Shown: positions 14,772 to 61,410 of the stretch, piece after piece
How positions within the stretch are numbered: position 1 is the stretch's first letter
Layout of the letters: each line of letters begins with the position of its first letter
NCBI GenBank assembly: GCA_028282925.1
Contig: JANQGV010000260.1
Span: forward strand, 1 to 63,069
Length of the DNA stretch: 63,069 bases
Source: Thermodesulfobacteriota bacterium
Lineage (GTDB): Bacteria > Desulfobacterota > WTBG01 > CAIYCZ01 > CAIRTM01
Direction of reading: 5' to 3'
The notes under the pieces: model-generated
What the model saw: the letters and a program-made list of their open reading frames with translations, nothing else
Database searches by the model: none
What the model was told of the DNA's origin: nothing
Translations under genes and position numbers: made by a program

Positions 14772-14778
14772 GTACCTC

Positions 14779-21579: not shown

Positions 21580-21654
21580 ACCCCCTTTACATCAGGCAGA
21601 AGTGCCCCCTGCACTTGTGCTCTCGGGTTCACAAACGTCATGCACATCGGCTTT

Positions 21655-24007: not shown

Positions 24008-24102
24008 CCTGTTCTCCTGTGAGGGATAGGAAGGCCATGTTACGGGAAGCCGAGCTATGGATTCACCCCCATGCAAATCCATACACAAGTTATACAGACA
24101 CG

Positions 24103-27399: not shown

Positions 27400-27446
27400 C
27401 GAGGGTCGAGCGCAACGCCGGAGATGGGCGTTTTCCGCTGGCCTCC
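27400..27446. repeat. 47-nt intergenic repeat, copy 2 (REP-like)
   Basis: cgagggtcgagcgcaacgccggagatgggcgttttccgctggcctcc, with internal hairpin AACGCC-ggagatg-GGCGTT. Confidence 0.6.
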
Positions 27447-27454
27447 AATGTGGT

Positions 27455-31805: not shown

Positions 31806-31852
31806 CGAAGGATGAGCGCAACGCAGAAGATGAGTCGTTTCCGCCGGCCTCC
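31806..31852. repeat. 47-nt intergenic repeat, copy 3 (REP-like)
   Basis: cgaaggatgagcgcaacgcagaagatgagtcgtttccgccggcctcc. It is enclosed by the 9-bp inverted repeat CAAGAGGCT (31767-31775) / AGCCTCTTG (31854-31862). Confidence 0.6.
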
Positions 31853-31994
31853 TAGCCTCTTGATTTACGCTACAGGTATGCTACTATAAAACAACTTTGC
31901 CACAGGGGTTCCAGGCCCACCGGGCTCTGCAGCACCTGTTTCATATCAACGCATACAAACCGGCCGTTCCAGAGGCCGGTCAGGGAATCGTACG

Positions 31995-45009: not shown

Positions 45010-46485
45010 CTATCGTAACGCTTCAATAATCTGTTCGGCCGCCAGCCGGCCCGCTTCCACTGCGGCTTCAAACGTTGGATAGACCATATAATCTCCGGCA
45101 AGTACCAGCGTTCCTGTTGTACTGGCATGCAGGCGTGTCAACCGGGAATACGCTCCAGGGGTCATGACGGGATAGGCATATAAAAAACGCTGAATATCAT
45201 AGCCGGCCACTTTTTCTTGCGCTCCGGGGAACAGTATTTCAAGGTCCTGGTACACATTTTCAAGCACCTGTTCGTCTGTAAGCTGTAACAGGGACATGTC
45301 GGTATAACTATCGGGTGCAACATAGGCACTCACAATATGTGCATCTATCTGTGCGGCCGACGGATCATATTCGCGCTGGACCCAGGTGCTGTCATACAGG
45401 TCGGTAAAAAAGAGACCGTCCGGAACTGCCAGATCGAATGCCTGATTAAATATCGGATCCAGACTGAACAGGGCTACCGTTATATAGGGGGCGTAGGAAA
45501 TTTGTTTCAGTAGAGACTTTTGCTCCTCTCCCAGCACGCCGTCCGCAACATCGAGCACCACCGGCGACGGCACTGCCAGCACCACGGACCGTGCAGTTAC
45601 CGTCAGTTCTGTGGCGTTATCTCCGGCATAGGTTACGGTATAGTTTTCATCCTCTTGTTCAACACGAACAACCCCTGCATCGGTTTTTACCCGTGCTCCC
45701 AGGTGCTCTGCCAAAGCATCGGTGACTTCGGTGATCCCGGTTACAAAAGAGTAGGTAAAACTGCGTTCTCCGGCGGCCTGTTCCGGGGCGTTTTCAAGGT
45801 CTCCGGTATCGGTAATGGGCGTACTGCCGATATACTGGAAAGCACTTTCGGGTATCATGCTCAGGGCCGAAATTTCATCAAGGCCGGCACCAAACAGCCC
45901 GCGTGATGCAACATTGAACGTTTCACGATAAATATCTGCAAACCCCTGCTCATCGAACCACTCGTCGGCGGTCATGGAATCCAGCACTGCCAGATCCGAT
46001 GTGAGGTCAAAAAAAGGCACGTCTTCGTACCCGACAGCGTACTGCAGCATGGCCGACACAAAGGCGTTATATTCCGCAACACTGCTTTCACTGATATACA
46101 TCAGAGCCAGCCCTTCATCGCTCCAGTAAAATAGACCGTTGCGATAGGTTGCATCAACCGGGAGCGGAATCTCTTTCGGCGTAATCTCCAGATCATTGAG
46201 TATCTCGGCCAATGATCCCGACGGCTTGCCCAGATACTCGGTCCCCTTGGCATATACCAGCCCCTTATGGCTCCCCGACACGGTTCTGCCGCCCGGCCGG
46301 CTTTCCTTCTCCAGCACCAGCACATCAAGGTCATAGTCATCCAGATAGTATCCTGTGGTCAGGCCGGCAATCCCGGCGCCCACTACAATGACATCATACT
46401 GCGTTTCTGTTTCATCACAGCCCTGCAAAAGGATGGCTATAATCCCTAAAAGCCCGACAACAGCAAAAAACATTCGTATTTTCAT
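45010..46485 (-). CDS. flavin amine-oxidase / protoporphyrinogen-oxidase-like FAD enzyme, predicted lipoprotein
   Basis: Segment YDVIVVGAGIAGLTTGYYL...VLVLEKESRPGGR. Signal MKIRMFFAVVGLLGIIAILLQGC. ATG at 46485 with GGAGG RBS. Confidence 0.7.
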   Translation of the reverse strand: MKIRMFFAVVGLLGIIAILLQGCDETETQYDVIVVGAGIAGLTTGYYLDDYDLDVLVLEKESRPGGRTVSGSHKGLVYAKGTEYLGKPSGSLAEILNDLEITPKEIPLPVDATYRNGLFYWSDEGLALMYISESSVAEYNAFVSAMLQYAVGYEDVPFFDLTSDLAVLDSMTADEWFDEQGFADIYRETFNVASRGLFGAGLDEISALSMIPESAFQYIGSTPITDTGDLENAPEQAAGERSFTYSFVTGITEVTDALAEHLGARVKTDAGVVRVEQEDENYTVTYAGDNATELTVTARSVVLAVPSPVVLDVADGVLGEEQKSLLKQISYAPYITVALFSLDPIFNQAFDLAVPDGLFFTDLYDSTWVQREYDPSAAQIDAHIVSAYVAPDSYTDMSLLQLTDEQVLENVYQDLEILFPGAQEKVAGYDIQRFLYAYPVMTPGAYSRLTRLHASTTGTLVLAGDYMVYPTFEAAVEAGRLAAEQIIEALR

Positions 46486-46575
46486 AAGAGTTCCTCCATC
46501 ACTGCCGAAGTGATAATGGTTTCGGCACATTATCGCAGAACAAAAGGGCCGCTCCGTAACCGGACACTCTGTATC

Positions 46576-46840
46576 CTATTCCACATCAAGCCTCTGTCGT
46601 ATCAAGCCTGCTGTCTCACTTTTAACGAAAGGCTTCATAATGAAGGCCCGGATACCGGCCTCGGCGACCCGTTCCATTAACACTGGTAATGACGCCCGTT
46701 CCGTCCGTAGACATAATACTATCGGGCGAGGCTTTAAAAATGTTTAGGAAGTCCCGGGACTCTTTGGGCGCTATTCGGGTCTGCATGCGCTCGTCCCTGT
46801 AGAGCGCCGCCTGATGCGATTCCCCCGGCCGGTTTTCCAC
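46576..46840 (-). pseudogene. decayed sensor kinase/response-regulator remnant (PAS start fused out of frame to REC end)
   Basis: One frame gives ...ESRDFLNIFKASPDSIMSTDGTGVITSVN; compare ESRDFLETIFKASPDMIMVTDNRGNITAIN in the 38556-41702 kinase. From about 46675 a shifted frame gives AEAGIRAFIMKPFVKSETAGLIRQRLDVE*; compare KKAGIKEFVMKPLERKQIAHTIRSVLD. Confidence 0.6.
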
Positions 46841-47102
46841 GCCCGCTGAAAAACCTCAAACAAGCCGCAGTCCGCACTCTCGGAAAAACGTCCGTGACCC
46901 TCCTGCCCATCACCTCATCTTTCGCAACCTTTTTTGCAATTTACATACTGCGGTCGGTATCCTTGAACACAAAACCGGGGAAAACTTTTTGGTACCGGTC
47001 CGGCATTACTACGCAATCTGCATTCCGTCAACGCAAAAATCGTGTTCCGCTTGCATGCAAAATGGTGGCTGCCAAAAGGTATTTTTCATGCTATATACTG
47101 TA

Positions 47103-47167
47103 CCGCTATTCGGTACAGTATAGTATAAATCATGTGAATATGCTTACAATTCCAGGACCATTCCGTA
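47103..47167. repeat. 65-nt direct repeat, left copy (island boundary)
   Basis: 60/65 identical to 59124-59188 by hand alignment. Weaker similarity extends about 35 nt further left. The left copy also forms an 11-bp hairpin at 47094-47122. Confidence 0.85.
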
Positions 47168-47259
47168 TTAAGCTGGCATGCATAGTATCTTTCAAAATAT
47201 ACATTGAAACACCTGTTCCGGAAAAAGCCGATCACCCTGCGCGAGACAATCCGTTTTTT

Positions 47260-48759
47260 CTACGTATTGTTTTTCTTCCACCAGCATGCCCATAACATCC
47301 AAAAACAAAAGAGAGGAAGCAGGCTGAGCAGATGGAAGGGAAACAGCAATTCTCCAAAGTTAAAAGAATTAAAGTTTACAATCTGGGGTGCCTGAAACCA
47401 ATTTTCATCCATAAAAACTGCATTCAAGTCGGGGTAGTTTTCAAAATTTGAAATCGGAACGGGATTAACCGCAACATTGTTTTGCAGAAGCTGATGCAAA
47501 ACCACATCGGTGAGAGGATTTTTGATTAAGTAAGACACCTCGTTTCCAACAGTCGTAATTGCCAGATTGATGACGATTGAAAGAAGGCCGACCACTTTGA
47601 ACGTGGCCGAAAAGCGCTGAAATGCAAAAACAGTCAGGACAAAACCGAAGGGGAAGGCCGGCACAAGGTAGCGCGGGCCGACTGCATTTCCACCATGCCA
47701 GGCATGAAAGCCAGCAATAAAAAGCAACATACTTCCTGAGATGAGCAAACACACAAGCAACTCTGCTGCGAAGCGTCGCTGTTTAATTGTGGAAAAGACG
47801 CCGGGGATGAGCATGATAAAGACCGGCGATGAGCACAGTAATCCCCGATACGGCAAAAACAGTAAGTTCTTTAAATCGTGGGGACCGGGAAGGCCAAAAA
47901 GCCTTCCGTTTACCGGGAAAAGTACGTTAGGATTTGAGTAGCTGTAGCTAACACTGAGAGGACCTCCGAAACAGGCGATATTATACCACACTTGCAGGCC
48001 TCCGGAAGGCAGGCAGCCCAACAGAAACAATAAAAAAAGACTGCGACCCCTTTTAAAACTGAACAGATACAGAGCAACAAAACCAAGGGGGATTATTGCC
48101 GACGGTTCTATCAAGGCCGCCATTGATGCTGCACCGCCGGACAGAACGGCGGCCCACGCTTCTTGCCGGGCTCGCCCATGTTTGATGCGCATAGCCAGCA
48201 CGAATGCAAGGAATGCAAAGCAGGCAGCGGGCACATGTGAATAGAAGGTTGTACTGTAACCAAACACAAGCGTTCCTACGCTGAAAAAAAAAGTCAACAG
48301 CATACTCGCATTGCGGCTGAAATTAAAAAAGGCACAGCACAGGTAATACATGAGCAGGCACAACACAACTGCAGCCAGGACCGTCGTACATAAATGCGCA
48401 CAATAGGTGCTGAACAGAACCTGTTTCTCCTCATTATTTGGAAAAAATTTTTTCGCTGCGTATTCAGCTATGCCGAAAGGCACCACCGCCATAAATGAAA
48501 GTCCGGGAGATTTGTTGCTGTAATAATGTCCGTTATACAGCGCCCAGTCGCCTGCGTTGAGGAAGGTAAAATATGAATAGGGTTTTTCTTTGACGCTTTC
48601 ACGGTAGCGGTCAATCCGAAAGGTCTGTTCATGAATAATAGCCCGGGTTAAACAGATTCGGGTGTTCTGGTTCCAGCCGCCCCCTTGAAAAAAATAGCCG
48701 AAGGTTACAAAAAAGAAAACAAACATCTGAATATAGGGAGTTATTCTACGGGTCATCAT
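47260..48759 (-). CDS. polytopic membrane protein, GT-C-like putative glycosyltransferase
   Basis: 499 aa with more than 12 TM segments. N-terminal GGGWNQNTRICLTRAI...GHYYSNKSPGLS is of a type seen in ArnT/PMT-like enzymes. Its ATG overlaps the upstream stop (ATGA). Confidence 0.5.
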   Translation of the reverse strand: MMTRRITPYIQMFVFFFVTFGYFFQGGGWNQNTRICLTRAIIHEQTFRIDRYRESVKEKPYSYFTFLNAGDWALYNGHYYSNKSPGLSFMAVVPFGIAEYAAKKFFPNNEEKQVLFSTYCAHLCTTVLAAVVLCLLMYYLCCAFFNFSRNASMLLTFFFSVGTLVFGYSTTFYSHVPAACFAFLAFVLAMRIKHGRARQEAWAAVLSGGAASMAALIEPSAIIPLGFVALYLFSFKRGRSLFLLFLLGCLPSGGLQVWYNIACFGGPLSVSYSYSNPNVLFPVNGRLFGLPGPHDLKNLLFLPYRGLLCSSPVFIMLIPGVFSTIKQRRFAAELLVCLLISGSMLLFIAGFHAWHGGNAVGPRYLVPAFPFGFVLTVFAFQRFSATFKVVGLLSIVINLAITTVGNEVSYLIKNPLTDVVLHQLLQNNVAVNPVPISNFENYPDLNAVFMDENWFQAPQIVNFNSFNFGELLFPFHLLSLLPLFCFWMLWACWWKKNNT

Positions 48760-50297
48760 TTTAAAGCCATAAATATTTCAGTTGGATACCGTGTTGGAAA
48801 ACATTTTATGCGTATATGATACGTCTTCAGATGGGCATATATTTTTTCGTGCTCCGGCATTTCGCGGTACAGTGTCCTGTCCTCATGCGCGGGGTGTATC
48901 GCTGGCAGCCAGGCAGAAGTTACACACCATACGGTATCGCGGGTATGCAGCAGTTGCGCAAAGGCCTCAAAAGTTTCCGGGATGATCAGGGGCGCATCCA
49001 GATAATATTGAAAAGAGCTACTACCGTATCCCAGGCCGACAACACAGTCGTTACGATTCGCTTTTAGACGTTCATTAAGGTAACCGGCCGCTTCACGATA
49101 GTTCTGACGGTCCTCAGTAACCGTCTCAACTATCTGCGGAAACTGAAGAGCAGAGAATCCAGCCAGCAGCATCAGCATACCGGTAAACACATACCGCTGC
49201 GGCAGACAGAGCATGACCGGGAGGTACGCTATACCACACCCGATAACCAGCAGCAGCAAGGGCAGCATAAAGATAAAGTACCGTTCGGTTATATATGCAG
49301 GTTTCAGGGCATAGGCAACCAGCAGCGGTAGACACGTCACCCCCAGCAGGTAAAGAAAAACCGTTCTATCCTGTCTGTACAAAAAGAGAAACCCGCACAC
49401 AATAAGCACACCGCTCAATATACTCCCGTAAATTGAGCCTATACCGGGAAGAATCGTCTTAAAATAATCCAGCAGAAACGGGAACGCAGGCAACTCGGGA
49501 GAGCCGGCCAGACGCTGCATCTCATTCAGCACATATGATGCCTGTGCAGGAGATGCAAGAAAACGATATACGGTGGGACTGTATACAAGCAGTGTACCGC
49601 TGAGCGCGAGAGCCAGGCAGATATAAGCATTGTTTACAGCAGTGCTTATTACGCCGGACGGCAAACGTGACGCCCTACCAAGGGATAAATACACTGTAAA
49701 GGCGAGTTGACAGCCAATAACTGCTGCCATGCAGATATGCATATACACCCCCAGGATATTCCATAGAACGTAATATGTCCAGGTGCTTTTGGCATTGGTA
49801 CGCAGGGCCTTGAGAAAACAGTAAGATGACAGCAACGCCAGCAGGGCCAGGCCGCTATAGCCGCGTGCCGACATGGAATGGTCGATATGAACAGCCGAGA
49901 CGGCAAGGAGTCCGGCACCTATAACGCCCTGCCGCGACCCGGCAAACGTTTTACCGAAAAGAAAAAGCATAGGAATCGACAGGATGCCCATCAGGAGTGC
50001 CGGCAGCCGTAAAGCAATTTCGTTTTCGCCAAGCAGGGTAAGCGAGAAGCGGGCCACAAGGGAATAGAGGGCATGGTTATTAAAAAAAGGCCCCAGCCGG
50101 CTAATGGTATCTGAAAGGGGGACAGCATGGGCATAGGCCATGGTTCCTGCTATTTCATCCCACCAGAAGCTTTGGTTTATGTTCCAAATCCGCAGGATAC
50201 TACCGGCACAGCCTATCGCTAGTATAATGATCGTATGTTTTTTCAACAGCAGCTTCTTTTGTTTCATTTGACAATTGGCGGCCCGTATACGCATCAT
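48756..50297 (-). CDS. GT39/GT83-like (ArnT/PMT-type) membrane glycosyltransferase
   Basis: First-loop motif NQSFWWDE and more than 12 TM segments. The start is ambiguous (ATGs at 50297, 50294 and 50267, none with a clear RBS). Confidence 0.6.
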   Translation of the reverse strand: MMRIRAANCQMKQKKLLLKKHTIIILAIGCAGSILRIWNINQSFWWDEIAGTMAYAHAVPLSDTISRLGPFFNNHALYSLVARFSLTLLGENEIALRLPALLMGILSIPMLFLFGKTFAGSRQGVIGAGLLAVSAVHIDHSMSARGYSGLALLALLSSYCFLKALRTNAKSTWTYYVLWNILGVYMHICMAAVIGCQLAFTVYLSLGRASRLPSGVISTAVNNAYICLALALSGTLLVYSPTVYRFLASPAQASYVLNEMQRLAGSPELPAFPFLLDYFKTILPGIGSIYGSILSGVLIVCGFLFLYRQDRTVFLYLLGVTCLPLLVAYALKPAYITERYFIFMLPLLLLVIGCGIAYLPVMLCLPQRYVFTGMLMLLAGFSALQFPQIVETVTEDRQNYREAAGYLNERLKANRNDCVVGLGYGSSSFQYYLDAPLIIPETFEAFAQLLHTRDTVWCVTSAWLPAIHPAHEDRTLYREMPEHEKIYAHLKTYHIRIKCFPTRYPTEIFMALK

Positions 50298-50322
50298 ATA
50301 AAGGGTGCAAAAAAATATAAAT

Positions 50323-50352
50323 TTGTCAATATTTTTCTACTTGTTTTATATA
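50323..50352 (+). promoter_or_regulatory. candidate promoter in the divergent AT-rich intergenic region
   Basis: TTGTCA-18 nt-TATATA(AT), about 100 nt upstream of the ATG at 50451. Confidence 0.3.
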
Positions 50353-50450
50353 ATATTATATTCTATTATAGTTCCTCCATGGGCATTGGTGATTGAGCAA
50401 CTAAAATGCGCCCCCTAAACACCTAAGACTTTTCACACAAAACATTTATT

Positions 50451-51848
50451 ATGCAAAAAGTTTCTGCCGGAAAAATCGTCATTATCGGCGCTGGCATTAC
50501 GGGCCTGGTGATAGCCATGGAACTTTCAAAAAAGTATGGCAAAAATGTGCTGGTGCTGGAACGGGAAGAGTATATCGGCGGCCTCTCTGCCACGGTAAAA
50601 CGGGATGGCCTGATCTATGATTTCGGTTCTCACAGACTGCACCGGGATATACAACAGGACGTGCGGGACTATATTGAGAAGACACTTGGCGTTGAGCTCT
50701 TAAAACGGCAAAGAAATGGAAAACTTTTCTTCCGCGGAAGGTATATCCACTATCCGCCAAACCTGTTCAACTTCCTGAAGCACTTTTCCACCAGCGAAAT
50801 AATGGGATTTATCGGCAGCTATCTGCATAATTTTTTTCAGTCCCCTGCCTCAAACGGGCTTAACTATCACGACGCAATGGTTAAGGCCATGGGTAGTAAA
50901 ATTTACAGTACCTTTTATGAAGGCTATGCCGAAAAACTGTGGGGCAAAAACCCGTGTGACATCTCTGTTGACGGCAAAAGAAAACGCGTGATTGGTGATT
51001 TCAAAACCTTGCGGCGGAGTTTGCATGCCAAAAGCAGTTATTATTATTATCCCCGGGACGGTATCGGCAGCATCCCTGACGCCCTGGCGCGGAAAGCCCG
51101 AGAGAACAAAGCCGAGATCATCACCGGGGCAGCCGTGCGCGCTGTAAAGTTCCATAACAATCGAGTTGCTCAGCTGGTTGTTGAAGACCGGCAAGGTGTG
51201 TGTAGTCACATCGATGTGGGGATGCTCATTTCAACCATGCCACTGGACGATCTTTTTAAGTTAACGCTCGCCGACCAAACGCATGCGCCGCAGCTCGAAT
51301 GGCGCGGAGCAAAGCTCGTTCATGCGTTAACAGACCAGGTCTTAACGTCAGATACGGAAACCTATTATTTTCCGGGTCGGGACATAACCGTCGGCCGGGT
51401 GTCGGATATAACCAAGTATTCGCCCTATCTGCGTGCGGCAACCCCGGGAACAATGCTGACGCTCGAAATTCCCCTCTCGGAAGGTGATGCCCTTTGGAAC
51501 ATGGACGATGCCTCGCTGCTGGATATCTGTCGACACGACCTTATTAAGGTAAATATTTTCAAAAAAGACCCCCGCATTATCAACTACTTCATTACACGTT
51601 TGCTGAAAACATATCCGGTCTATACCCTGGAGTGGAAAAAAACGTTTTACTCGATTACACAGCAGCTCGATCAAATCAACAATATCTACACAATCGGCAG
51701 GGGCGGGCTCTATCTGCACTGCAATATCGATCACTGTATTGAACAGGGGATCGCACTGGCAAAGCATCTTCTTGCTGGTGAATCGTGCGATAAAGATGCG
51801 TGGGGCTCACAAGTGAAAACATTTTTAACGCAGAGCGCCCGGGACTGA
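50451..51848 (+). CDS. NAD(P)/FAD-dependent oxidoreductase (amine-oxidase / HemY / Glf-like fold)
   Basis: Segment KIVIIGAGITGLVIAMEL...VLVLEREEYIGGLSA...DFGSHRL. Confidence 0.7.
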   Translation: MQKVSAGKIVIIGAGITGLVIAMELSKKYGKNVLVLEREEYIGGLSATVKRDGLIYDFGSHRLHRDIQQDVRDYIEKTLGVELLKRQRNGKLFFRGRYIHYPPNLFNFLKHFSTSEIMGFIGSYLHNFFQSPASNGLNYHDAMVKAMGSKIYSTFYEGYAEKLWGKNPCDISVDGKRKRVIGDFKTLRRSLHAKSSYYYYPRDGIGSIPDALARKARENKAEIITGAAVRAVKFHNNRVAQLVVEDRQGVCSHIDVGMLISTMPLDDLFKLTLADQTHAPQLEWRGAKLVHALTDQVLTSDTETYYFPGRDITVGRVSDITKYSPYLRAATPGTMLTLEIPLSEGDALWNMDDASLLDICRHDLIKVNIFKKDPRIINYFITRLLKTYPVYTLEWKKTFYSITQQLDQINNIYTIGRGGLYLHCNIDHCIEQGIALAKHLLAGESCDKDAWGSQVKTFLTQSARD

Positions 51849-53170
51849 TGTCGGTCGAGTTTAGGATTAAAAATTTTCTTCACCCCCTGGCCATTCTGAA
51901 ACTGCGGCGGTTTCTCGAAAAAAGCCAGTGGTTTTCCTTCAAACGTTTGCAGGAGTACCAGGTGGTGCGCCTGCAGCGTATTCTCAATCACGCCTATACA
52001 AACGTTCCGTACTACCACAAGCTTTTTAATCGCATCGGGTTCAAGCCCCATAAAGTTTTCAGCCTGGATGCTTTGCAAAAAATACCCCCGCTCACCAAAG
52101 ATCTTGTAAAAGAGAACAAACACCTCCTTGTAGCACGCAATGCCGCACGATTCAGCCCGGTTAGCTGCCGGACCTCGGGCTCTACAGGCGAAGCGGTTGA
52201 GTTCTATCTGGATCGACCCTCTAATGTACTGGAGTTCTGCTATTACTGGCGCTACTGGTCCTGGGCCGGATACCGGCTGGGCAGTCCTTTTGCGGAACTG
52301 GCAAGCCACTATTTTTTAACCCATCCCCGACGAAAAAACGATGTGTACGTTTTTTACCGCCCCGGGCGGCGCCTGCTCCTCAACAGCATGATGCTATCCT
52401 GTGACCGCATTGATCACTACGTTGCGGCCCTGCGGAAATACCGCCCCCGGTTTTTAAAAGGGCTGGCGTCAACCTTGTACGTTTTTGCCCTGTTGGTTAA
52501 GGACAAGGGCATCGACGACCTTGGTTTTGATGCGGTCTTTTCAACCGGCGAAATGCTGCTCAAGCCGTATCGAAAAACCATTGAAGCGGTGTTTCACTGC
52601 AAAGTGTATGATTCCTATGGCCATATGGAGCGTACTGTTGCCGTTTCCGAATGCCCGTGCGGGGGCTATCATCTCAACGCCGACTACGGCATACTGGAGC
52701 TGCAAAAAGAACCCGGGCAAAATGCGACGGCCAGAGGAACGGTACTGGGCACGGGACTATACAATTTCAGCATGCCGTTAATCAGGTATGCAGTAGGAGA
52801 TGTGATCGAGGCCGACCATGCAAACAGCCTGTGTCAATGCGGCAGAGGGTTGCCGCTCATAAAAAATATTCATGGGCGCAAAGAAGACATCATTGTCACT
52901 CCCGACGGAAGAATCGTGACCTCGGCCTTCACACTGTTTGAACTTGTGCATGGCATTGAGTTGGGACAGATTGTACAGGAACAGAAGGACCGGATTGTCC
53001 TCCGGATTGTACCGTCAGCGGGCTATGGCCCGGAAAGCGAGCAGCAGGCAGTCACCACCCTGCAAAATTTTGTCGGACAGGATATCTGCATTAAAGTCGA
53101 CTACACTACGAAGGAAAAAATCAAAGCCGCTGACGGCCGTAAGTTTAAAACGGTGGTTTCATGCCTTTAG
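51848..53170 (+). CDS. adenylate-forming enzyme, phenylacetate-CoA ligase / coenzyme F390 synthetase (CapK-like) family
   Basis: Segments LQEYQVVRLQRILNHAYTNVPYYHKLF and TSGSTGEAVEF. Its ATG overlaps the upstream TGA (TGATG). Confidence 0.7.
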   Translation: MSVEFRIKNFLHPLAILKLRRFLEKSQWFSFKRLQEYQVVRLQRILNHAYTNVPYYHKLFNRIGFKPHKVFSLDALQKIPPLTKDLVKENKHLLVARNAARFSPVSCRTSGSTGEAVEFYLDRPSNVLEFCYYWRYWSWAGYRLGSPFAELASHYFLTHPRRKNDVYVFYRPGRRLLLNSMMLSCDRIDHYVAALRKYRPRFLKGLASTLYVFALLVKDKGIDDLGFDAVFSTGEMLLKPYRKTIEAVFHCKVYDSYGHMERTVAVSECPCGGYHLNADYGILELQKEPGQNATARGTVLGTGLYNFSMPLIRYAVGDVIEADHANSLCQCGRGLPLIKNIHGRKEDIIVTPDGRIVTSAFTLFELVHGIELGQIVQEQKDRIVLRIVPSAGYGPESEQQAVTTLQNFVGQDICIKVDYTTKEKIKAADGRKFKTVVSCL

Positions 53171-54421
53171 GCTCTGTATTCCGATGAGAAGATACCACGC
53201 CTGCTTCATACTATGTTTTACCTGCAGGCGCACCTGGCGCCACACCTTTACCGCATATGACACTTTATTGTCAAAGGTGCTGGCCGGTGTACCGGGACGG
53301 TCCGAATATTTGAATATCCCAAGCTTATCAAAATAAATCCTGTCGAGCAGGCGCATATTTGCCTGAAACTCAGTTGTGCTTTCCCCCGGGAAACCAACTA
53401 ATAAATGTGATTTTATCGTTATGTCCGGATCGACCGCGTGTATGGCTCGAATACTTTCAATATACGCTTCAATAGTATGGTTCCTTTTCATTCTCGTCAA
53501 AATTTGATTGCTGCCATGCTGAACAGTATATTCAATATTTACAATCCGGCCCGGCTGAACCATCTCCAGAAAGTCGTTTAATTTTGCCATAAAGCGGCTT
53601 GGATTGACATGGCATAAAGAAACGGATAAGGAGCGATTAACTGCAAAAATGTGCCGCAGCAGGGTTGGATAATCGGTGCCGATGTCTACCCCATATGATG
53701 CAAAATCGTCGGCCACCAAAACGAAGTGGGTGTATCCCCTTTGCAGCGCCTGCATAACCTCCCGGACAACCTCGGCAACCGGACGGCTAACGATAGCACC
53801 CCGCGCATGCTTAATAATACAATAGGTGCAGCTGCCGGCACATCCTTTGGCAACACGAATAACGTAACTGTGCGGGGCATATATTTGGGTTGTTTTGAGC
53901 ACGCGCTCGATACGGCTACCCGCCTGCTTGCTGAAAAAAGAAACCAGGCACTTGATTTTTTTTGTGGCCGAAAATACTATTTTGCGAGACCTTGTCCGGG
54001 GGTTCAGGACGTCAATCTGCTGATCGAAAAAAACAGCACCGGGCGATATCGGCTTCAGGTTAAAACGTTCTATAAATGCATCCGTTTCCCGCGGCCCGTA
54101 AAAACCAGCAACCTGGTCCGGAAACAACGTGCTAAGCTTATTTTTATGGGTTTGGGCCATACAGCCGCACACAATCAGCTGTGCATCGGTTTTTTTTACT
54201 TTAACAATGGTACCGATGGTATGGACTGACGCATCTTCGGTCTCCTGCATAGCAATACAGGTACTGACAAGGATAAGGTCGGCCCTGGAAGCTTCATCTA
54301 CCTGGTGATAATTGTTGGACGCAAGAAGGTTGCTGAAGTATTCGAGGTCCACAAGCGAAGAATAACAGCCCGCTTCGCTGAGAGTCAGAAAAAAGGTCTT
54401 TTTAAATCCGTTCATATCCAT
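53159..54421 (-). CDS. radical SAM enzyme, MiaB/RimO-like methylthiotransferase architecture without obvious TRAM domain
   Basis: N-terminal UPF0004-like Cys triad (EAGC...VSTC...VCGC) and radical SAM CAGSCTYC. I prefer the ATG at 54421 (AAGGGG RBS) over 54460. Confidence 0.65.
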   Translation of the reverse strand: MDMNGFKKTFFLTLSEAGCYSSLVDLEYFSNLLASNNYHQVDEASRADLILVSTCIAMQETEDASVHTIGTIVKVKKTDAQLIVCGCMAQTHKNKLSTLFPDQVAGFYGPRETDAFIERFNLKPISPGAVFFDQQIDVLNPRTRSRKIVFSATKKIKCLVSFFSKQAGSRIERVLKTTQIYAPHSYVIRVAKGCAGSCTYCIIKHARGAIVSRPVAEVVREVMQALQRGYTHFVLVADDFASYGVDIGTDYPTLLRHIFAVNRSLSVSLCHVNPSRFMAKLNDFLEMVQPGRIVNIEYTVQHGSNQILTRMKRNHTIEAYIESIRAIHAVDPDITIKSHLLVGFPGESTTEFQANMRLLDRIYFDKLGIFKYSDRPGTPASTFDNKVSYAVKVWRQVRLQVKHSMKQAWYLLIGIQSLKA

Positions 54422-54444
54422 CTTTACCCCTTGTTTTTTTAACC

Positions 54445-55623
54445 TTAGTAACCGTCGCATTCATACAGGCTGCAGCAGCGTGTACAATAGGGAAAAGTGC
54501 CTTTGCCCGCCAGATGCTGTCGGAAGCTGCGGTATGTCTGATTGCACCAGACAACATCAAAATCAGTATCCATAAGGTTGCCAGCAATAATATCCGGCAG
54601 GTCGTCGCAGGTAGCAACATCACCGTTTGGCAGGATGTGGGAGGTAAGCCGGCCCACCGCACAGCGCTTGCCCCCTAATACCCTTTCAGGCTCACTGAAA
54701 TAATCGTGAAAATCAACGGGGAACCGAGGCAGTTGGTTATACTGCCCTCCTAAAAGCTCTTTTGCAGCTAAAATCTGCTTCCAGATTGTCTCACAATGCA
54801 TTCCGGTCTTGTCGCTCACGAATCCTTTCCAGTACCGGGGAGTACAGGCGAAGTGCTCTTCTATGATGCTCGATGAGCGCATGCCCAAATCCTCTGTTGT
54901 GAACATCCCCAGCTGGACCAAAAAAACATCCACTCCCAGACCCTTGACAAGCTGTGCCGTTTCAAGAATGTGGTCTTGATTTTCAGGAGTCAAGGTGAAG
55001 CATATCTCAACAATGGGAAAACAGGTTCGATATTGTTTTTTGGCGGCAACCAGTTCCTGCACTGCGCTGATCACCTTTGCATAGCTGTTGCCGGAACCAA
55101 TGCGGATGTTGTTATTGATCTCTTCGGGTCCATCCAGGCTGACAATAATATAATCGAGACCGGAGGCAATCAAGTTGTGTGCCTGGCCCTCCAGGAGTGT
55201 CCCGTTTGTATTAACGCCGGTAATCATGAAACGGTCCGAGGCGTACCGGATCAGCTCAAAGATGTCCTTTCTCAGAAATGGCTCTCCGCCGAAAAAATGA
55301 ATATGGGGACAAAAAAAAGAGTTTCGACTGAGCTGATCGACAACGAGCTTCCACTGCTCGGTCGACAACTCCGAGAACAGAGTGCTGTTTTCTTCGCTCT
55401 GCTTATGGTGCCCGCTAAGGCCCCACTGCCCGCACTGGCGGCATCGCAGGTTGCAGCGGTTTGTCAGCCGGGCAATTACTCTGCAGGGAGGGTCTGCCGT
55501 GCCGGGCGAGGCCGAATATTTCCTGCAGCGCCACTTGCGCAGGGCTATCTGCAAAAGGCCTGCAATTTTGCGCGGGCGCTCACGTACAAATCTCAGTAAA
55601 AAAACTAGTTTCCTTGTGAACAT
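54445..55623 (-). CDS. radical SAM / SPASM-domain protein
   Basis: CNLRCRQC cluster motif, GGEPFL, and a Cys-rich C-terminus (CAVG...CDDLP...CTRCCSLYEC). Confidence 0.75.
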   Translation of the reverse strand: MFTRKLVFLLRFVRERPRKIAGLLQIALRKWRCRKYSASPGTADPPCRVIARLTNRCNLRCRQCGQWGLSGHHKQSEENSTLFSELSTEQWKLVVDQLSRNSFFCPHIHFFGGEPFLRKDIFELIRYASDRFMITGVNTNGTLLEGQAHNLIASGLDYIIVSLDGPEEINNNIRIGSGNSYAKVISAVQELVAAKKQYRTCFPIVEICFTLTPENQDHILETAQLVKGLGVDVFLVQLGMFTTEDLGMRSSSIIEEHFACTPRYWKGFVSDKTGMHCETIWKQILAAKELLGGQYNQLPRFPVDFHDYFSEPERVLGGKRCAVGRLTSHILPNGDVATCDDLPDIIAGNLMDTDFDVVWCNQTYRSFRQHLAGKGTFPYCTRCCSLYECDGY

Positions 55624-55644
55624 GGATCTATCCGTGTGTTTAAC

Positions 55645-56415
55645 CTATTCTTTGTATCCGTGCATGATAACGTATGAGCTTAGTTTGCGTAGAAACGGCA
55701 AGTATTTCAGCAGGCCTGCATCCAGCGTGCCCATATACGGCAAAATTTTTTTCAGCCCCGCTTTATACAGCACATACATGATTGATTCGCGCATTATAAA
55801 ATCGGCAAAATAAAAGCCGACATTGTTAAAAGAGGCGGCTATCTGATCGAGTTCCTTTGAACTGAACTCAAACTCATCTTCCGTAAAACACAGCGGTTCC
55901 GGATGGAACGGTACTTTTTCATGGAAGAAGCGTATAAAACCGGTCAAGCAGACAGGCTCTTCAGCGATAAAATATCCCCCGGGGGCTAATGCCTCCTTTA
56001 TGGCGGTCAGAGCCGATGCGAAGTTCATGTGGTGCAAGGCATGGCGTGAAACAACAACATCAAACAGACCACTGAAAACCATGTCTTCGCAGTTGAGAGT
56101 AAGGGCCTGCACCTTGTTTTCAAGCCCGTTTTCTCTTGCCAGCCGCATGGTTGTCCGTCCGGCTTCATGCGAAACATCGATGCTGGTCACCTCATTATTG
56201 TTTTGGGCCAGAAAGAGCGCATACCGGTCAACACCGCCGCCGACGGAAAGAACCCTTTTATTCTGTATGCCGGACAGCATTGAAATAAAGTACCGCGTGG
56301 TATAGCGATAGTCATCAATACAGGCCGGAAAAATATCGATGGCTGCATTCCGGGTTGTTGTCCGTCGATACGTATTATTCCAGTAGCCGGCTTCGCGTAA
56401 GGCCTTAGGTTTCAT
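55645..56415 (-). CDS. class I SAM-dependent methyltransferase
   Basis: Motif I-like VLSVGGGVDRYALFLA and a downstream acidic loop. It overlaps the upstream gene by 11 nt. Confidence 0.7.
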   Translation of the reverse strand: MKPKALREAGYWNNTYRRTTTRNAAIDIFPACIDDYRYTTRYFISMLSGIQNKRVLSVGGGVDRYALFLAQNNNEVTSIDVSHEAGRTTMRLARENGLENKVQALTLNCEDMVFSGLFDVVVSRHALHHMNFASALTAIKEALAPGGYFIAEEPVCLTGFIRFFHEKVPFHPEPLCFTEDEFEFSSKELDQIAASFNNVGFYFADFIMRESIMYVLYKAGLKKILPYMGTLDAGLLKYLPFLRKLSSYVIMHGYKE

Positions 56416-57442
56416 GGTCGGTCAGACACCATTGTGAAAAATTATCTACTGTAAACCGTTGGGCGCCAAAATACCGGATAGCATAATCGGCATTGTGATC
56501 CTCGGCTACCGGCATGCCCTTAAGGAGAAAGAGCTTCCGCCCGGCATGGTGGGTCTCCAGTACCGTTGAAATACCGGGCTTACTAATGATGCTGGCACAT
56601 TCCCCCATCAAGCCTGTCAGGCTTGCAAGCTGGCCATGTACGATAACTTGCGGGTGATTTTGATAGCGCGTGCTCAGCCGTTCAAAAATCGTCTTGTTTT
56701 CTCCGCAAACGACATGTATGTGGAGTTTCGGCAGCCGCCTGCTCAAGCTGTTGATAATTTTCACAAAAGAACCCTGGCCCCAATATCCCGCCACCAGGAG
56801 TGTTTTATTAATGTCCCCGGCAGATTCAGCAAGTTCCCGGTAACCGGACCTGACCGGCAGCTTAATGTGTACGTAGTCCAAATGAGCGGGAAAAGGGAAG
56901 TCGCGCTCTCTTTCAGCCAGCGGAGAAAGATATCCGTCCATAACATCCCAGAAGATATATTTCCAGCCCAGGGTGCGGCCATATTCCCCCAGCAGACCCC
57001 AGAGCTTAAAATCGCCCCGGGTACGGCGCTTAAAGGCGGAAAACCAGAACGCCGGGCGATGGCTGATGCATATGACCGATTTGATCTTGAGCGCCTCCAT
57101 TTTGTCCTGAATGCGGTGCAGATCGGAACCGGCAAAATATTTCTCCCGCACCAGCTTGCGGTAATAAAAAAACGGGATAGTATATACAAGGTTCAAGAGA
57201 AATGGCGCCCTGTTGGAAATCAACTGATAGCGTTTAAAATCTTCATTGAAAGCTCCAGGGTTCATCAACTCCTCAATCGGCACGTGGTAGACCTCCCCCG
57301 AATCATCCAGCATCTCCTTGACTGCATCACCGATACTGTACATGCCTCTGCCGACAATAGTGCTGACGATTAAAACCGGCGGCTCAAACTTTTGTAGAGC
57401 TGCGACCAGGCCACAGCAAAAATTTTCGGTATGGTTACGCAT
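56405..57442 (-). CDS. GT28-family glycosyltransferase, MGDG-synthase/UgtP-like
   Basis: N-terminal VLIVSTIVGRGMYSIGDAV and C-terminal SKPGISTVLETHHAGRKLFLLKGMPVAEDHNADY, resembling diacylglycerol glycosyltransferases. ATG at 57442; the ORF-track start is a TTG at 57475. Confidence 0.55.
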   Translation of the reverse strand: MRNHTENFCCGLVAALQKFEPPVLIVSTIVGRGMYSIGDAVKEMLDDSGEVYHVPIEELMNPGAFNEDFKRYQLISNRAPFLLNLVYTIPFFYYRKLVREKYFAGSDLHRIQDKMEALKIKSVICISHRPAFWFSAFKRRTRGDFKLWGLLGEYGRTLGWKYIFWDVMDGYLSPLAERERDFPFPAHLDYVHIKLPVRSGYRELAESAGDINKTLLVAGYWGQGSFVKIINSLSRRLPKLHIHVVCGENKTIFERLSTRYQNHPQVIVHGQLASLTGLMGECASIISKPGISTVLETHHAGRKLFLLKGMPVAEDHNADYAIRYFGAQRFTVDNFSQWCLTDHET

Positions 57443-57504
57443 AACATCGACTTTCAACAAACAAGGTGCTCGCAATGCAGGTAATTGCCGGACAGCCTTC
57501 TCAA

Positions 57505-58680
57505 CTATAAGTATTTTCTATTGGCGTCATACAAATATATATTGTTGCATTTGCTGCATACCGGTAATGGTTCCCGGCGAATTACACTTCTGAACCTTTG
57601 ATACGCAGGACTGTTCCATACGTCTGGAAGTGTTTCGCTGGTTACGTTCCCAAACGTCATGTCCGGGAACTGGACACAGGGGGTTACCGTACCATCCGGT
57701 AAAATATCGATCCGGAGCCACTGCTTCGCGCACACGTCATTGCCGATCAACTTCTGGGGATCATCAATAAATGGGTATATTGATTCGGGATCTTTTAAAT
57801 AACAGGAAATCTGGATCGGCCAGCGGTCACGACGGATTTTTTCATATTCCGCTATAAAGGTTTCCTTATCGATCGGGAATGGTGCCAGGTAGCCGAGATG
57901 AGTCTTCGGCATAATGTTGAAGCGATCCTGCATGAAACGCTCATACGAGCACGCCTGTTTCTCCGATACAAACCAGGTCGGGTTCAGCAGAATCCAGTCG
58001 ACTCCCAGCTTAACCATCTCTTTGCAGAAGCGGCGCATGACATGAACATTATCCGGGCGTACTGTAAATTGAATGCCAAGATAGGGAGGACGCTTTAAGG
58101 CTTTCAAGTCTTGAATGCTTTGCACCACCCGGGCAAAAACCCCTTTACCCCGGATGGCATCATTTTCCGGTTCCAGCCCGTCAAGGGAGACTAAAAAGGT
58201 CGGATAGGGATTGCCGTCGAGGGCCTTACTTAAGGCATGCAGGCGCGTGCCGTTAGTACAGATGGTAGCAAAGGTCTTGTGCTTTTGCAGGAGGCTCAGC
58301 AACTGCTCCATCTGGCTGTACAGCAACGGTTCGCCACCTGACAAAACAAAAGATGCATTATAGGGCAACTGCCGGAATACTCTTTCGATAACTTGCCAGG
58401 ACATTTCTTCATTCATGCCCGCAGGGTTCTTTTTTTTCCAGCCGCTATTGCCCCAGAGCATGCACATCCGGCACGAAAGATTGCATTTCCACGTAAGGAT
58501 AAGTTTATACACCAGCGGCGCCGGAACAACTGCATGCCCGGAAGACTGCCGGTACATCCAGCGATAGCGCTGCCTGAATTGAATCTTTTTAATAAGAAGG
58601 TGCTTGAAGTAGCGAGGATGGTGCGCAAGCAGTTGCAGAGCCGGTGTAAAAATTGCCATAGGAAAATAATATTTTTTCAT
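57505..58680 (-). CDS. radical SAM / SPASM-domain protein (paralog of 54445-55623)
   Basis: CNLSCRMC, SGGEPLL, and C-terminal CAKQ...CVQFPD...CSKC. An alternative upstream ATG lies at 58722. Confidence 0.75.
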   Translation of the reverse strand: MKKYYFPMAIFTPALQLLAHHPRYFKHLLIKKIQFRQRYRWMYRQSSGHAVVPAPLVYKLILTWKCNLSCRMCMLWGNSGWKKKNPAGMNEEMSWQVIERVFRQLPYNASFVLSGGEPLLYSQMEQLLSLLQKHKTFATICTNGTRLHALSKALDGNPYPTFLVSLDGLEPENDAIRGKGVFARVVQSIQDLKALKRPPYLGIQFTVRPDNVHVMRRFCKEMVKLGVDWILLNPTWFVSEKQACSYERFMQDRFNIMPKTHLGYLAPFPIDKETFIAEYEKIRRDRWPIQISCYLKDPESIYPFIDDPQKLIGNDVCAKQWLRIDILPDGTVTPCVQFPDMTFGNVTSETLPDVWNSPAYQRFRSVIRREPLPVCSKCNNIYLYDANRKYL

Positions 58681-58687
58681 TTTCTTT

Positions 58688-58716
58688 ATATTATTGACAA
58701 ATTGATCACATGTCAA
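58688..58716 (-). promoter_or_regulatory. candidate sigma70-type promoter (TTGACA-17-TAATAT)
   Basis: Read on the minus strand. The -10 element ends 7 nt before the ATG at 58680, implying a leaderless or very short-leader transcript if it is used. Confidence 0.35.
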
Positions 58717-58786
58717 TTGCATTATGCTTTTTTATGCTATTTGGTTATTTTTAGTTTTACAATAATAAATATTATACTATCTATGT

Positions 58787-58975
58787 CTAATCGTGGGACA
58801 TAGTAATTGATACAATCACTGCCTGGTATGCTTTCTCATTAGCTTCAAACGATTTTTTGTAGGTATAGAATCCAACCACGACGGAAAAGACAACCGAAAA
58901 AGCCGCCAGGAACATGGCTATAGGAGGCATTTTCCTGGATAGATTTAATTTGGAAGACTCCAACCCTCCATTCAT
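58787..58975 (-). CDS. small single-pass membrane protein
   Basis: MNGGLESSKLNLSRKMPPIAMFLAAFSVVFSVVVGFYTYKK..., one TM segment, GGAGG upstream. The start is uncertain. Confidence 0.35.
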   Translation of the reverse strand: MNGGLESSKLNLSRKMPPIAMFLAAFSVVFSVVVGFYTYKKSFEANEKAYQAVIVSITMSHD

Positions 58976-59123
58976 ATACCTCTTACCTCCGCCGCCATAG
59001 AGGGAACACAAAAACCAATGTCTTTCTGTCAAAAATCTGCACATATATAAAATGGATACTGTCAGAAATATTTTTTCATGCTATATCTTCTTTCTATATT
59101 CGCCTGTTTAAAAAAAACCATAA

Positions 59124-59188
59124 CCGCTATTCGTTACAGTATAGTATAAATTATGTGAATATGCTTACAACTTCAGGATCATTCCGTA
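59124..59188. repeat. 65-nt direct repeat, right copy (island boundary, overlaps start of GH gene)
   Basis: See the left copy at 47103-47167. This copy contains GTGAATATGCTTACAACTTCAGGATCATTCCGTA, the start of the 59161 CDS. Confidence 0.85.
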
Positions 59189-61410
59189 GCTTTTTGATAT
59201 CCGTATTGCTTTTCACTTTGACCTGTACCGGCGGGTGCGACCGGTCATCCTCCCTCTCCTGCCGGACTCAATTGCAACTCATCAAAACCTGCACACCCGT
59301 ACTGCGCACCCGCCTTGATACGCTGCAAAACCAAGGCGCCGATGTGGCATATCCTCTTGTGTACCTGACCGTTCTGGAACAGTTTGCGGACCTTGCGGCC
59401 CATAGTTTTGATATCGGCAAAACCGAGCGCGGCTGCCGGGAAGTAGCGGAGTTGCAGGACATTGCCCTGAAATGTGCAACCGAGCTGGATGCCCTTGAAG
59501 CGGGAACCCTGTTGCCGGATGTGCCTCGTTATATATCCTCATCGAGGAGTATCAGCGGGGGGGCATTTAAGGCCACGGTACGCTGGCCGGACGGGTCGGA
59601 AACAACAGACTGGCCGGTAATTTTCAGCGGGTACGGCCATTTTGAAACCCTCATAGCCGATATTGAACTCATGCCGGATTACGGCACGCATATCATTCAG
59701 ATAGAGGTCGGTCCGTCCAATGTTCTGGTTGCCGACAATGAAACCGATTTGACCCATATACATGAAGTGCTGATTGATGCCCTTGACCGGGCCTGGGATG
59801 CAAACATCGTTGTCGACCTGCTGCTTTCACCGGATTACCTTCCCGGTTGGGTATTTGAAACGTGGCCCGAAATCATCATTAATGCCGGAGAGTACATTCC
59901 CTTTTCCGTCGATTCCCCGACCAGCCTTTCATTTTTTAAAAAATACCTTGAAGCTCTTGTTCCTGAAATAGCCGACCATCCGGCCCTCAACGGCTTGTGT
60001 TTAACCAATGAGCCGAGCTATTTTGATGCCACCCGCGACAGCGAAAACCGACCGGCATACACCTCCTGGCTGTTGGAAACCTACGGCAGTCTCGATGCCG
60101 TTGCCGCCGCCCATGGTGAAGACTACTCTTCGTTTGCTGATGTTCCGATATTTTATGTAGACACAAAAGGGTTTATTCTCTATCCCCTGAGCAACACCAG
60201 TCTTCCCCAGCGTTACGATTATTACCGGTTCAACGACTATCGTTTCGCCGCTTTTCATCAATGGATGGCCGACACCATTCACGCCCTGGCCCCCGACGTC
60301 CCCGTGCATGTCAAAATATCCGACTATTCTCACAGAGACCCCTTCGAGGGTATCGATCCTGAACAGTTTATGGCTTTTTCCGGCATAGCCGGCCATGACT
60401 CGGCAAACTATTACACCGCAGATGACCCTGAAGAGGTCTATGCCAACCAGTGGCTGTTTCAAAACATGTTCTTTGACCTGCTGCACTCCCTTTCAGGGCT
60501 ACCCCTTTTCAACTCTGAAAACCACATCGTGCGCGATTTTGAAAAACAGATGCCGCCTGCGGCCCATATCCGTAACGTCCTCTGGCAATCGGCCGTTCAC
60601 GGGCAGTGTGCTTCAACGGTGTGGGTCTGGGAGCGGTACGGTGATAATGAAACTATCGGCTTGTCCGATTTTACGGCAGTTAAACACAGCCCGGCCCTGG
60701 TTGTGGAACACGGCCGAACGGCCCTGGATCTGTTGCGCCTGGGCCGGGAAATCAATGCCCTGCAACAGGCCCCGGCCCGGGTTGCCATCCTCTATTCGCC
60801 CACATCCCTTATCTACGATCTGGAAAACTATACGGATCTGATGACCGCAACCTACGAAGCCCTTTCCGGTATCGGAGAAAAAATTGCGTTTATTACCGAA
60901 CAGGGAATTGCCCGGCTCAACACCCCCTATCCCCTGATTATTGCCCCCGGGGTAACCCACATACCGGATGATGTTTTTACAGGGCTTCAGCAATTTGTTG
61001 CGGACAACAACACCCTGGTGCTTATCGGTGATAAAAGCCTTGCCTACGACCAGTTGCATAACTTGCGCACTGAAACGCTCCCGATGGCGGTGCAAATGGA
61101 AAACGGCATCTCCGAAGAACTGCACGCCGGCATTCTGCCATTTCTCGACTCACTTCCCGGTGGCCGCCCCTTGAAAATCATCGATACGGCTACCGAGGTT
61201 GAACCCTGGGGAGTTGAATGGCGCTGGGTTGAGTACCATGGAAAGTACCTGATTTCCGTCACCAATTACAACAAATCGAACGTCTCGATCCGTTTTGAGG
61301 GAATCCAGACCAGGGACCTGCAGGATTTAATCAGTATGCAACCCGTTAACGAACCCCTGCAGGTTGCTCCCCTTGCAACCTATTTAATAGCTGTTCCCAA
61401 AAGCAGCTGA
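59161..61410 (+). CDS. exported glycoside hydrolase, clan GH-A TIM-barrel (GH42/beta-galactosidase-like)
   Basis: Signal with Cys (LFTLTCTGGC), LNGLCLTNEPSYF (NEP acid/base-like) and NSENHIV (candidate nucleophile region). The family assignment is tentative. Confidence 0.5.
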   Translation: MLTTSGSFRSFLISVLLFTLTCTGGCDRSSSLSCRTQLQLIKTCTPVLRTRLDTLQNQGADVAYPLVYLTVLEQFADLAAHSFDIGKTERGCREVAELQDIALKCATELDALEAGTLLPDVPRYISSSRSISGGAFKATVRWPDGSETTDWPVIFSGYGHFETLIADIELMPDYGTHIIQIEVGPSNVLVADNETDLTHIHEVLIDALDRAWDANIVVDLLLSPDYLPGWVFETWPEIIINAGEYIPFSVDSPTSLSFFKKYLEALVPEIADHPALNGLCLTNEPSYFDATRDSENRPAYTSWLLETYGSLDAVAAAHGEDYSSFADVPIFYVDTKGFILYPLSNTSLPQRYDYYRFNDYRFAAFHQWMADTIHALAPDVPVHVKISDYSHRDPFEGIDPEQFMAFSGIAGHDSANYYTADDPEEVYANQWLFQNMFFDLLHSLSGLPLFNSENHIVRDFEKQMPPAAHIRNVLWQSAVHGQCASTVWVWERYGDNETIGLSDFTAVKHSPALVVEHGRTALDLLRLGREINALQQAPARVAILYSPTSLIYDLENYTDLMTATYEALSGIGEKIAFITEQGIARLNTPYPLIIAPGVTHIPDDVFTGLQQFVADNNTLVLIGDKSLAYDQLHNLRTETLPMAVQMENGISEELHAGILPFLDSLPGGRPLKIIDTATEVEPWGVEWRWVEYHGKYLISVTNYNKSNVSIRFEGIQTRDLQDLISMQPVNEPLQVAPLATYLIAVPKSS

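Follow-up and report, generated by a model that had tools for sequence, protein, structure and literature searches.

How does a block of nine biosynthetic genes come to lie between two copies of the beginning of a neighbouring gene? The question is raised by contig JANQGV010000260.1 (assembly GCA_028282925.1) of a Thermodesulfobacteriota bacterium, in which the 5' part of an intact gene for a GH42-like glycoside hydrolase is repeated in direct orientation about 12 kb upstream, on the far side of a gene cluster. The analysed stretch, called the window below, is 63,069 nucleotides (nt) long and is the entire NCBI contig of this metagenome-assembled genome (MAG). The left copy is very probably an eroded relic of a GH42-like hydrolase gene and not an attachment (att) site. 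For the arrangement as a whole we favour, with considerable reserve, an insertion of the 11.8-kb cluster anchored by homology in the hydrolase gene and made without any element-encoded enzyme, so that the repeat would be an ordinary recombination scar.

Two unequal copies of the hydrolase gene

A direct repeat of 65 nt had been predicted at the two ends of the cluster, and both a repeat finder and direct reading of the sequence recovered it as 47102-47167 versus 59123-59188, with 61 of 66 positions identical and a spacing of 12,021 nt. The 29-nt core of the repeat, with up to three mismatches allowed (<=3), has two sites in the window, while none is expected from 100 shuffles. No match to the repeat 23-mer AGTATAGTATAAATNATGTGAAT was found in genome, metagenome or viral contig collections, and no further copy of the repeat in 1.4 Mb of fetched related loci or in plasmids. 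The weaker similarity that had been described to the left of the repeat, with an insertion of about 35 nt in the right copy, is likewise real; its extent is given below as block A, and together with a third stretch from the middle of the gene (block C) the homologous segments and the intact gene are as follows.

47059-47096, plus strand: block A, left copy; upstream region of the hydrolase gene, 29/38 positions (76%) identical to 59049-59086
59049-59086, plus strand: block A, right copy
59087-59122, plus strand: 36-nt segment of the right copy only; the left copy has ACTGT (5 nt) instead
47102-47167, plus strand: block B, left copy; 32 nt directly 5' of the start codon and hydrolase codons 1-11
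59123-59188, plus strand: block B, right copy; 32 nt directly 5' of the start codon and the first 11 codons of the intact hydrolase
47187-47240, plus strand: block C, left copy; hydrolase codons 260-277, encoding FKIYIETPVPEKADHPA, in frame with block B
59931-59984, plus strand: block C, right copy; hydrolase codons 260-277, just 5' of the NEP motif
47094-47122, no strand assigned: perfect 12-bp palindrome with a 5-nt loop, left copy only, spanning the junction of the A/B indel
59155-61410, plus strand: intact GH42-like glycoside hydrolase with a lipoprotein-type signal peptide (Pfam PF02449)

The original prediction had called the left copy a dead duplicate of the hydrolase 5' end that runs into unrelated sequence. 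The first part of this description is borne out by blocks A to C; the second is incorrect, since the homology resumes 19 nt beyond block B with codons 260-277. Block C was first seen when all window proteins were compared with the left intergenic region by tblastn. The decisive test was the pairwise nucleotide comparison, in which 42 of 54 nucleotides (78%) were identical, corresponding to 12 of 17 amino acids when set against the parent residues 261-277 (FKKYLEALVPEIADHPA). The local nucleotide score is 30, whereas 3,000 shuffles that preserve dinucleotides gave 10.6 +/- 1.3 and at most 17, and 475 real control segments of 93 nt also reached at most 17; the protein score of 61 compares with 26 +/- 3.7, none of 2,000 shuffles scoring as high. 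When the hydrolase family profile was run against the six-frame translation of the left region, its top match was the same fragment of 17 residues, which is too short for its score to be significant. By eye, the relic peptide is closer to the window hydrolase (12/17) than to homologues of 48-52% identity.

The three blocks have the same order and strand as in the parent hydrolase locus. Blocks B and C are separated by 19 nt on the left and by 742 nt on the right, and the difference of 723 nt equals 241 codons, so that the frame is kept. It is this collinearity, with an in-frame loss of 723 nt, that identifies the left copy as a probable GH42-like pseudogene. Only codons 1-11 and 260-277 are left in it, the catalytic motifs are lost and the open frame measures 53 codons. 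The homology breaks off at 47240, shortly ahead of where the NEP motif would stand; from there it is 19 nt to the stop codon (47260) of the first cluster gene, which encodes a membrane protein of 499 amino acids (aa).

The divergence of the copies is uneven. Over the three blocks pooled, 132 of 158 positions are identical (16% divergence), whereas the divergence outside block B is 22-24%; block B, at 92% identity (61/66), is conserved above blocks A and C taken together (71/92; Fisher p = 0.016), and at the A/B boundary the two copies differ by a 31-nt indel. First, second and third codon positions alike have mismatches in block C, and the coding changes in block B are all non-synonymous (3/3), which fits relaxed selection.

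An assembly artefact was ruled out, because three Logan contigs, assembled independently from two sequencing runs, span the two junctions at 100% identity. Two of them cover the left junction (L010, window 45979-52096, and L011, window 46762-48746) and one the right (L012, window 57190-59426). The organism is present in the Logan runs SRR20820740 and SRR20820733.

The prediction had further placed a hairpin of 11 bp in the left copy alone, and this palindrome exists, slightly longer, with 12 bp. Folded as DNA, the left copy has a z-score of -4.15, compared with +0.27 for its counterpart on the right. This operator-like palindrome overlapping the left copy, together with the conservation of block B above its flanks, is in keeping with a different view of the repeat, namely that block B works as a bidirectional regulatory module, present in duplicate and kept in both places by selection. 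Its minus strand would drive a small open reading frame (ORF) and the cluster on the right, and a flavoprotein gene (45010-46485) on the left. Both copies of block B contain the minus-strand sequence TTGTAA-16-TATACT, which is the only minus-strand sigma-70-like match 5' of the flavoprotein gene in 46400-47400. However, this match is weak (9/12) and its density is near the shuffle expectation, the palindrome is not present in the right copy, and its half-site has no second occurrence in the window. In addition, the radical S-adenosylmethionine (SAM) operon of the cluster has its own proximal promoter-like site shared with relatives, the left site would give the flavoprotein gene a 5' untranslated region of about 630 nt, and no other copies of the module were seen in the 1.4 Mb of related loci or in public collections. 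We consider a selected regulatory module unlikely, although it would be compatible with either of the duplication or insertion origins weighed below, and a present role of block B as flavoprotein promoter is speculative.

The intact hydrolase matches PF02449 with 45 bits (cut-off 21), and its full-length homologues carry the same domain. The deposited gene call starts at TTG 59194, just 3' of the repeat, and gives a protein of 738 aa (P0001). ATG 59161, within the repeat as had been proposed, yields a lipoprotein-type signal peptide (MLTTSGSFRSFLISVLLFTLTCTGGC) comparable with those of the homologues, and for this reason is the more plausible start; the deposited start is then probably 11 codons too short. 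Among 5.8 billion protein clusters the nearest hydrolase homologue is 52% identical, and no synteny was found at five homologue loci. Exact-protein searches with both start variants of the hydrolase and with the left-flank flavoprotein gave no match.

Origin of the bracketed arrangement

The interval between the repeats had been judged AT-rich by eye, and the composition of its genes agrees. Gene G+C content is 0.487 in the interval versus 0.529 in the rest (Mann-Whitney p = 3e-4), and G+C content at third codon positions (GC3) is 0.551 versus 0.612 (p = 9e-4). The tetranucleotide correlation of the interval with the rest of the contig is 0.824, compared with 0.89-0.96 for 24 equal-length controls, and no other stretch of the contig departs as far in composition as the enclosed DNA. 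These three deviations support a foreign origin, and the cluster was probably acquired from elsewhere. We also count for acquisition the fact that the radical SAM module of the cluster stands beside different neighbours in two metagenome loci, L006 and L009, and recurs in varied orders and contexts in 24 metagenome loci.

The edges of the cluster do not coincide with those of the repeat. On the left, cluster DNA begins at about 47241-47259 and not at 47167, that is, 75-90 nt past block B. At this junction, which has the form of an illegitimate one without extended homology, the 3' flank of the 499-aa gene (47241-47259) follows directly on hydrolase codon 277, and no similarity crosses it. On the right, the nucleotide homology of L006 and L009 with the window ends at 58780-58786, about 260 nt before block A.

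Direct repeats around a compositionally deviant gene set would also fit the site-specific integration of an island, with blocks A and B as attL and attR and an integrase that was lost or lies beyond the contig. Some gene-integrating elements carry a substitute gene end. The absence of an integrase or transposase, already remarked upon in the prediction, is upheld: Pfam scans of all large ORFs detected no integrase, recombinase or transposase domain, a negative result that covers the 63-kb contig, and no tRNA or tmRNA gene was found in the window. Moreover, the cargo is purely biosynthetic and lacks mobility genes, the supposed att sites carry a 31-nt indel and diverge by 8-24%, and block C, a piece of the middle of the gene that is collinear and in frame past the left repeat, is left unexplained. 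Site-specific integration is thus highly improbable. Of the two origins that the original prediction had allowed for, duplication-mediated insertion comes close to the anatomy of the locus, whereas att-type target duplication does not agree with three blocks, displaced edges and a missing recombinase.

A transposon or insertion sequence was rejected for want of a transposase and of terminal inverted repeats, as no inverted repeat of at least 9 nt links the two ends, the best direct match between which is a single 10-mer. The repeat is far longer than any known target-site duplication. Nor was there a sign of a structured RNA or riboswitch, as neither intergenic region has a match in Rfam at the gathering threshold or at E <= 1.

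A truncated copy, an insert and an intact copy, in this order, are what a single crossover or a one-sided homologous insertion yields. In the homology-anchored insertion that we favour, about 11.8 kb of foreign DNA (47241-59048), made up of the cluster and the stretch with the orphan small ORF, would have come on a fragment from a related organism that also bore the upstream region and 5' part of the donor hydrolase gene. The right end of the fragment would have recombined by homology within the gene of the resident hydrolase, at codon 277 or farther on, and the left end would have been joined illegitimately at resident codon 277. We give about an even chance to the particular route, which would be homology-facilitated illegitimate recombination (HFIR) or its equivalent, a single crossover after circularisation. 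What had been the upstream region and 5' part of the resident gene would have been stranded as a truncated duplicate and then have decayed with the in-frame loss described above, and the copy derived from the donor, now joined to the 3' part of the resident gene, would have remained functional. Most of the 8-24% divergence between the copies would be older divergence of donor and recipient, and this would explain how a still distinct insert coexists with a relic that has diverged by 16%.

The main rival to such an insertion, which we regard as rather unlikely, is tandem duplication in situ of a 12.7-kb unit followed by deletion. The native order would have been cluster, small ORF, upstream region and hydrolase gene, and the duplicated unit would have had hydrolase codon 277 as one end and a point shortly past the stop codon of the 499-aa gene as the other. 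The first copy of the cluster would later have been deleted together with most of a neighbouring sensor kinase gene, and the stranded 5' piece would have decayed. Tandem duplications are common in bacteria. This model yields the exact junction and the order of the blocks with no need for a donor, and the left region does show large deletions (more than 2.7 kb of the kinase gene and 723 nt of the hydrolase relic). On the other hand, it requires at least one event more than the favoured route and leaves the distinct composition of the cluster unexplained. Since tandem copies start identical, the 16% divergence (22-24% outside block B) implies a long time, over which a relic of 180 nt would usually have been deleted and the deviant composition of the cluster would have faded.

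Several observations weigh against homology-anchored insertion of foreign DNA. The shift in composition is only modest, and GC3 is low (0.538) in the resident left neighbour too, the flavoprotein gene (45010-46530). The homologous crossover on the right is invisible; GC3 of the hydrolase gene rises from 0.56 in codons 1-375 to 0.61 in codons 376-750, a trend that fits a crossover near codon 375 and that is by estimate within sampling noise. The conservation of block B above blocks A and C requires either a promoter constraint or uneven divergence of the orthologues. A GH42 gene stands beside parts of the cluster in none of 57 GTDB loci and in none of 24 longer metagenome loci, a negative result that is weak evidence on the donor arrangement because the databases contain no close relatives.

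Both HFIR and circularisation with a single crossover are documented routes for the uptake of foreign DNA (PMC3240628), and the first accounts, from Acinetobacter, Streptococcus and Pseudomonas, are cited in PMC5361080. The present locus resembles these events in having one homologous anchor and one illegitimate end, in the lack of a dedicated recombinase, and in that insertion may entail the loss or stranding of resident sequence. It differs in that the event is deduced from one natural scar and not seen experimentally, in the size of the insert, which at about 12 kb exceeds typical laboratory events, and in that no donor arrangement was found. Orphan gene fragments displaced beside incoming modules are also a described outcome (PMC5361080), known from the effector-immunity arrays of type VI secretion (T6SS) in Vibrio cholerae and from the orphan 3' regions of Rhs loci. 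There, as here, part of a resident gene is displaced by a module arriving with a homologous anchor, and its remains, no longer functional, lie in the same orientation next to the new DNA. In the T6SS and Rhs loci, however, it is the 5' region that stays constant, and the orphans accumulating downstream are 3' ends or immunity genes, whereas the piece stranded here is an upstream region with a 5' part, lies upstream of the insert, and belongs to a locus without toxin and immunity logic. With integrase islands flanked by attL and attR the locus shares direct repeats around a deviant accessory block beside a gene end. It differs from them in the absence of an integrase, tRNA or mobility gene, in a repeat made up of three fragments of one gene locus with an indel and 8-24% divergence, and in the edge of the insert lying off the edge of the repeat.

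On the favoured view, the locus adds one more instance to a known kind of scar; its interest is modest, and it poses no new biological question. It offers a clean natural example of how a biosynthetic cluster can enter a chromosome without the machinery of a mobile element, and cautions that flanking direct repeats which are in truth the eroded remains of a gene duplicate may pass for the att sites of an island. A bolder view, which we hold to be quite improbable, is that the cluster is an integrase-free cassette with a captured homology arm, consisting of the upstream region and the first ~277 codons of the hydrolase gene. Such a cassette would insert by a single crossover of the host RecA wherever a related hydrolase gene is present, so that one flank would regain an intact gene and the other would keep a truncated copy, and would provide a self-targeting route for biosynthetic clusters among uncultivated Thermodesulfobacteriota.

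Content and relatives of the enclosed cluster

Nine genes lie between the repeats, in addition to the orphan ORF. These and the promoter-like site of the radical SAM operon are listed below.

47260-48759, minus strand: GT-C-like integral membrane protein (499 aa), first gene of the cluster, weakly similar to the putative glycosyltransferases LA_3751/LA_3752
48756-50297, minus strand: PMT_2-type membrane glycosyltransferase (Pfam PF13231, 7e-8)
50451-51848, plus strand: FAD oxidoreductase (Amino_oxidase, PRK07208-like)
51800-53170, plus strand: adenylate-forming enzyme similar to F390 synthetase/PaaK (NCBIfam matches, all below cut-off)
53159-54460, minus strand: radical SAM protein of the MiaB/RimO type (Pfam UPF0004 and Radical_SAM)
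54445-55623, minus strand: radical SAM/SPASM protein
55645-56415, minus strand: class I SAM methyltransferase
56405-57475, minus strand: protein with a glycosyltransferase-like C-terminal half, similar to that of diglucosyl-diacylglycerol synthase (below cut-off)
57505-58659, minus strand: radical SAM/SPASM protein (384 aa), first gene of the minus-strand operon
58688-58716, minus strand: promoter-like site TTGACA-17-TAATAT, proximal to the radical SAM operon and within the sequence shared by L006 and L009
58787-58975, minus strand: orphan small ORF (62 aa) with one hydrophobic helix and a Shine-Dalgarno-like GGAGG

No NCBIfam model matches a cluster protein above its curated cut-off; the MiaB/RimO-type protein reaches 249 bits with TIGR00089, for which the cut-off is 251. 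The cargo, with its radical SAM proteins, glycosyltransferases and adenylating enzyme, is widely conserved and is the more interesting item of the locus.

In L006 and L009 the proteins of the radical SAM module are 75-77% identical to those of the window and their genes have the same order, and sequences similar to the TTGACA-17-TAATAT site are present in both. On the side of the hydrolase, L006 has an FGE-sulfatase-like gene as neighbour and L009 an LPG_synthase_TM gene, neither of them of the GH42 type. In L006, the interval that separates the radical SAM operon from the FGE-sulfatase-like gene (positions ~600-830 in minus-strand reading) contains a GC-rich hairpin with a run of T after it, as well as two direct GTTTGTATACTC motifs beside a TATAAAT box; this arrangement could represent an operator or promoter, or a small RNA.

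More widely, the module at 50451-58659 is conserved in soil and sediment metagenomes (L006, L009 and L070-L116) in varied gene orders. It comprises two radical SAM/SPASM proteins, the glycosyltransferase-like protein, the methyltransferase, the F390-synthetase/PaaK-like enzyme and the FAD oxidoreductase, with or without the MiaB-like radical SAM protein. In the 24 longer metagenome loci the module is widespread, its orders and contexts vary, and no sensor kinase gene stands beside it. In contrast, the 57 GTDB loci, all with a homologue of the 499-aa membrane protein, share with the window only the two membrane glycosyltransferase-like genes. The closest of them are about 50% identical and all belong to Thermodesulfobacteriota, in whose MAGs the pairing of the 499-aa and PMT_2-type genes is seen. 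Because the GTDB loci keep only the membrane pair and the metagenome loci the radical SAM module, the repeat-bracketed unit appears from these comparisons to be a composite of two conserved modules and 262 nt of unique sequence. Among plasmids, the only similarity to the cluster was a generic one of 26% to radical SAM proteins.

The unique 262-nt stretch, 58787-59048, lies outside both the conserved cluster and the repeat and contains the small ORF. A search of 1.84 billion representative proteins returned only the self-match, and the ORF is an orphan gene of very recent origin, or else non-coding filler. Its candidacy as the precursor of a ribosomally synthesized and post-translationally modified peptide was rejected, as it is an orphan absent from L006 and L009, in which homology stops at 58780-58786.

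The left flank and other features of the window

To the left of the hydrolase relic lie a resident flavoprotein gene and the remains of a second gene.

45010-46485, minus strand: amine-oxidase-type flavoprotein with a lipoprotein-like signal peptide (Pfam Amino_oxidase, 1.8e-29)
46582-46825, minus strand: relic of a hybrid sensor kinase gene, not annotated, paralogous to 38556-41702 (tblastn)

The long ORF of the flavoprotein runs to 46530, and the start at 46485 is taken from the gene call on L010. The kinase relic consists of two fragments, corresponding to residues ~519-571 at the PAS boundary (51% identity over 53 aa, E = 1e-7) and ~1000-1044 at the receiver C-terminus (37.5% over 48 aa, E = 4e-4), the E-values being those of tblastn on the scale of the window. 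The fragments now abut, more than 2.7 kb of the gene having been lost, and lie directly upstream of the flavoprotein gene, an arrangement that would imply a lost kinase-flavoprotein operon. The 729-nt gap at 46531-47259 thus holds two eroded genes, and the position of the kinase relic beside the hydrolase relic indicates that this intergenic region accumulates such remains. For 46826-47058 and the small ORF at 58787-58975, considered as further relics of the kinase or hydrolase gene, no similarity was found. For annotation, two pseudogene relics are missing and the hydrolase start is probably mis-called.

Elsewhere in the window, seven paralogous genes for FAD-dependent oxidoreductases occupy 1446-17487 on the minus strand, one at 1446-2777 and six in tandem at 8626-17487, with 26-67% identity to one another. 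Two MarR-family regulators are interspersed among them (7985-8482 and 14319-14771). The set looks like a lineage-specific expansion.

A 56-nt sequence (CGAAGGATGAGCGCAACGC...) occurs three times with 70-77% identity, at 6416-6471, 27400-27455 and 31806-31861, in or near intergenic regions, and may represent either a dispersed repeat of small size or an element resembling a terminator. Finally, a 28-nt unit is present in two tandem copies of 96% identity at 21644-21699, at the junction of a DUF1302 gene (19954-21579) and a gene of the MMPL family (21662-24088).

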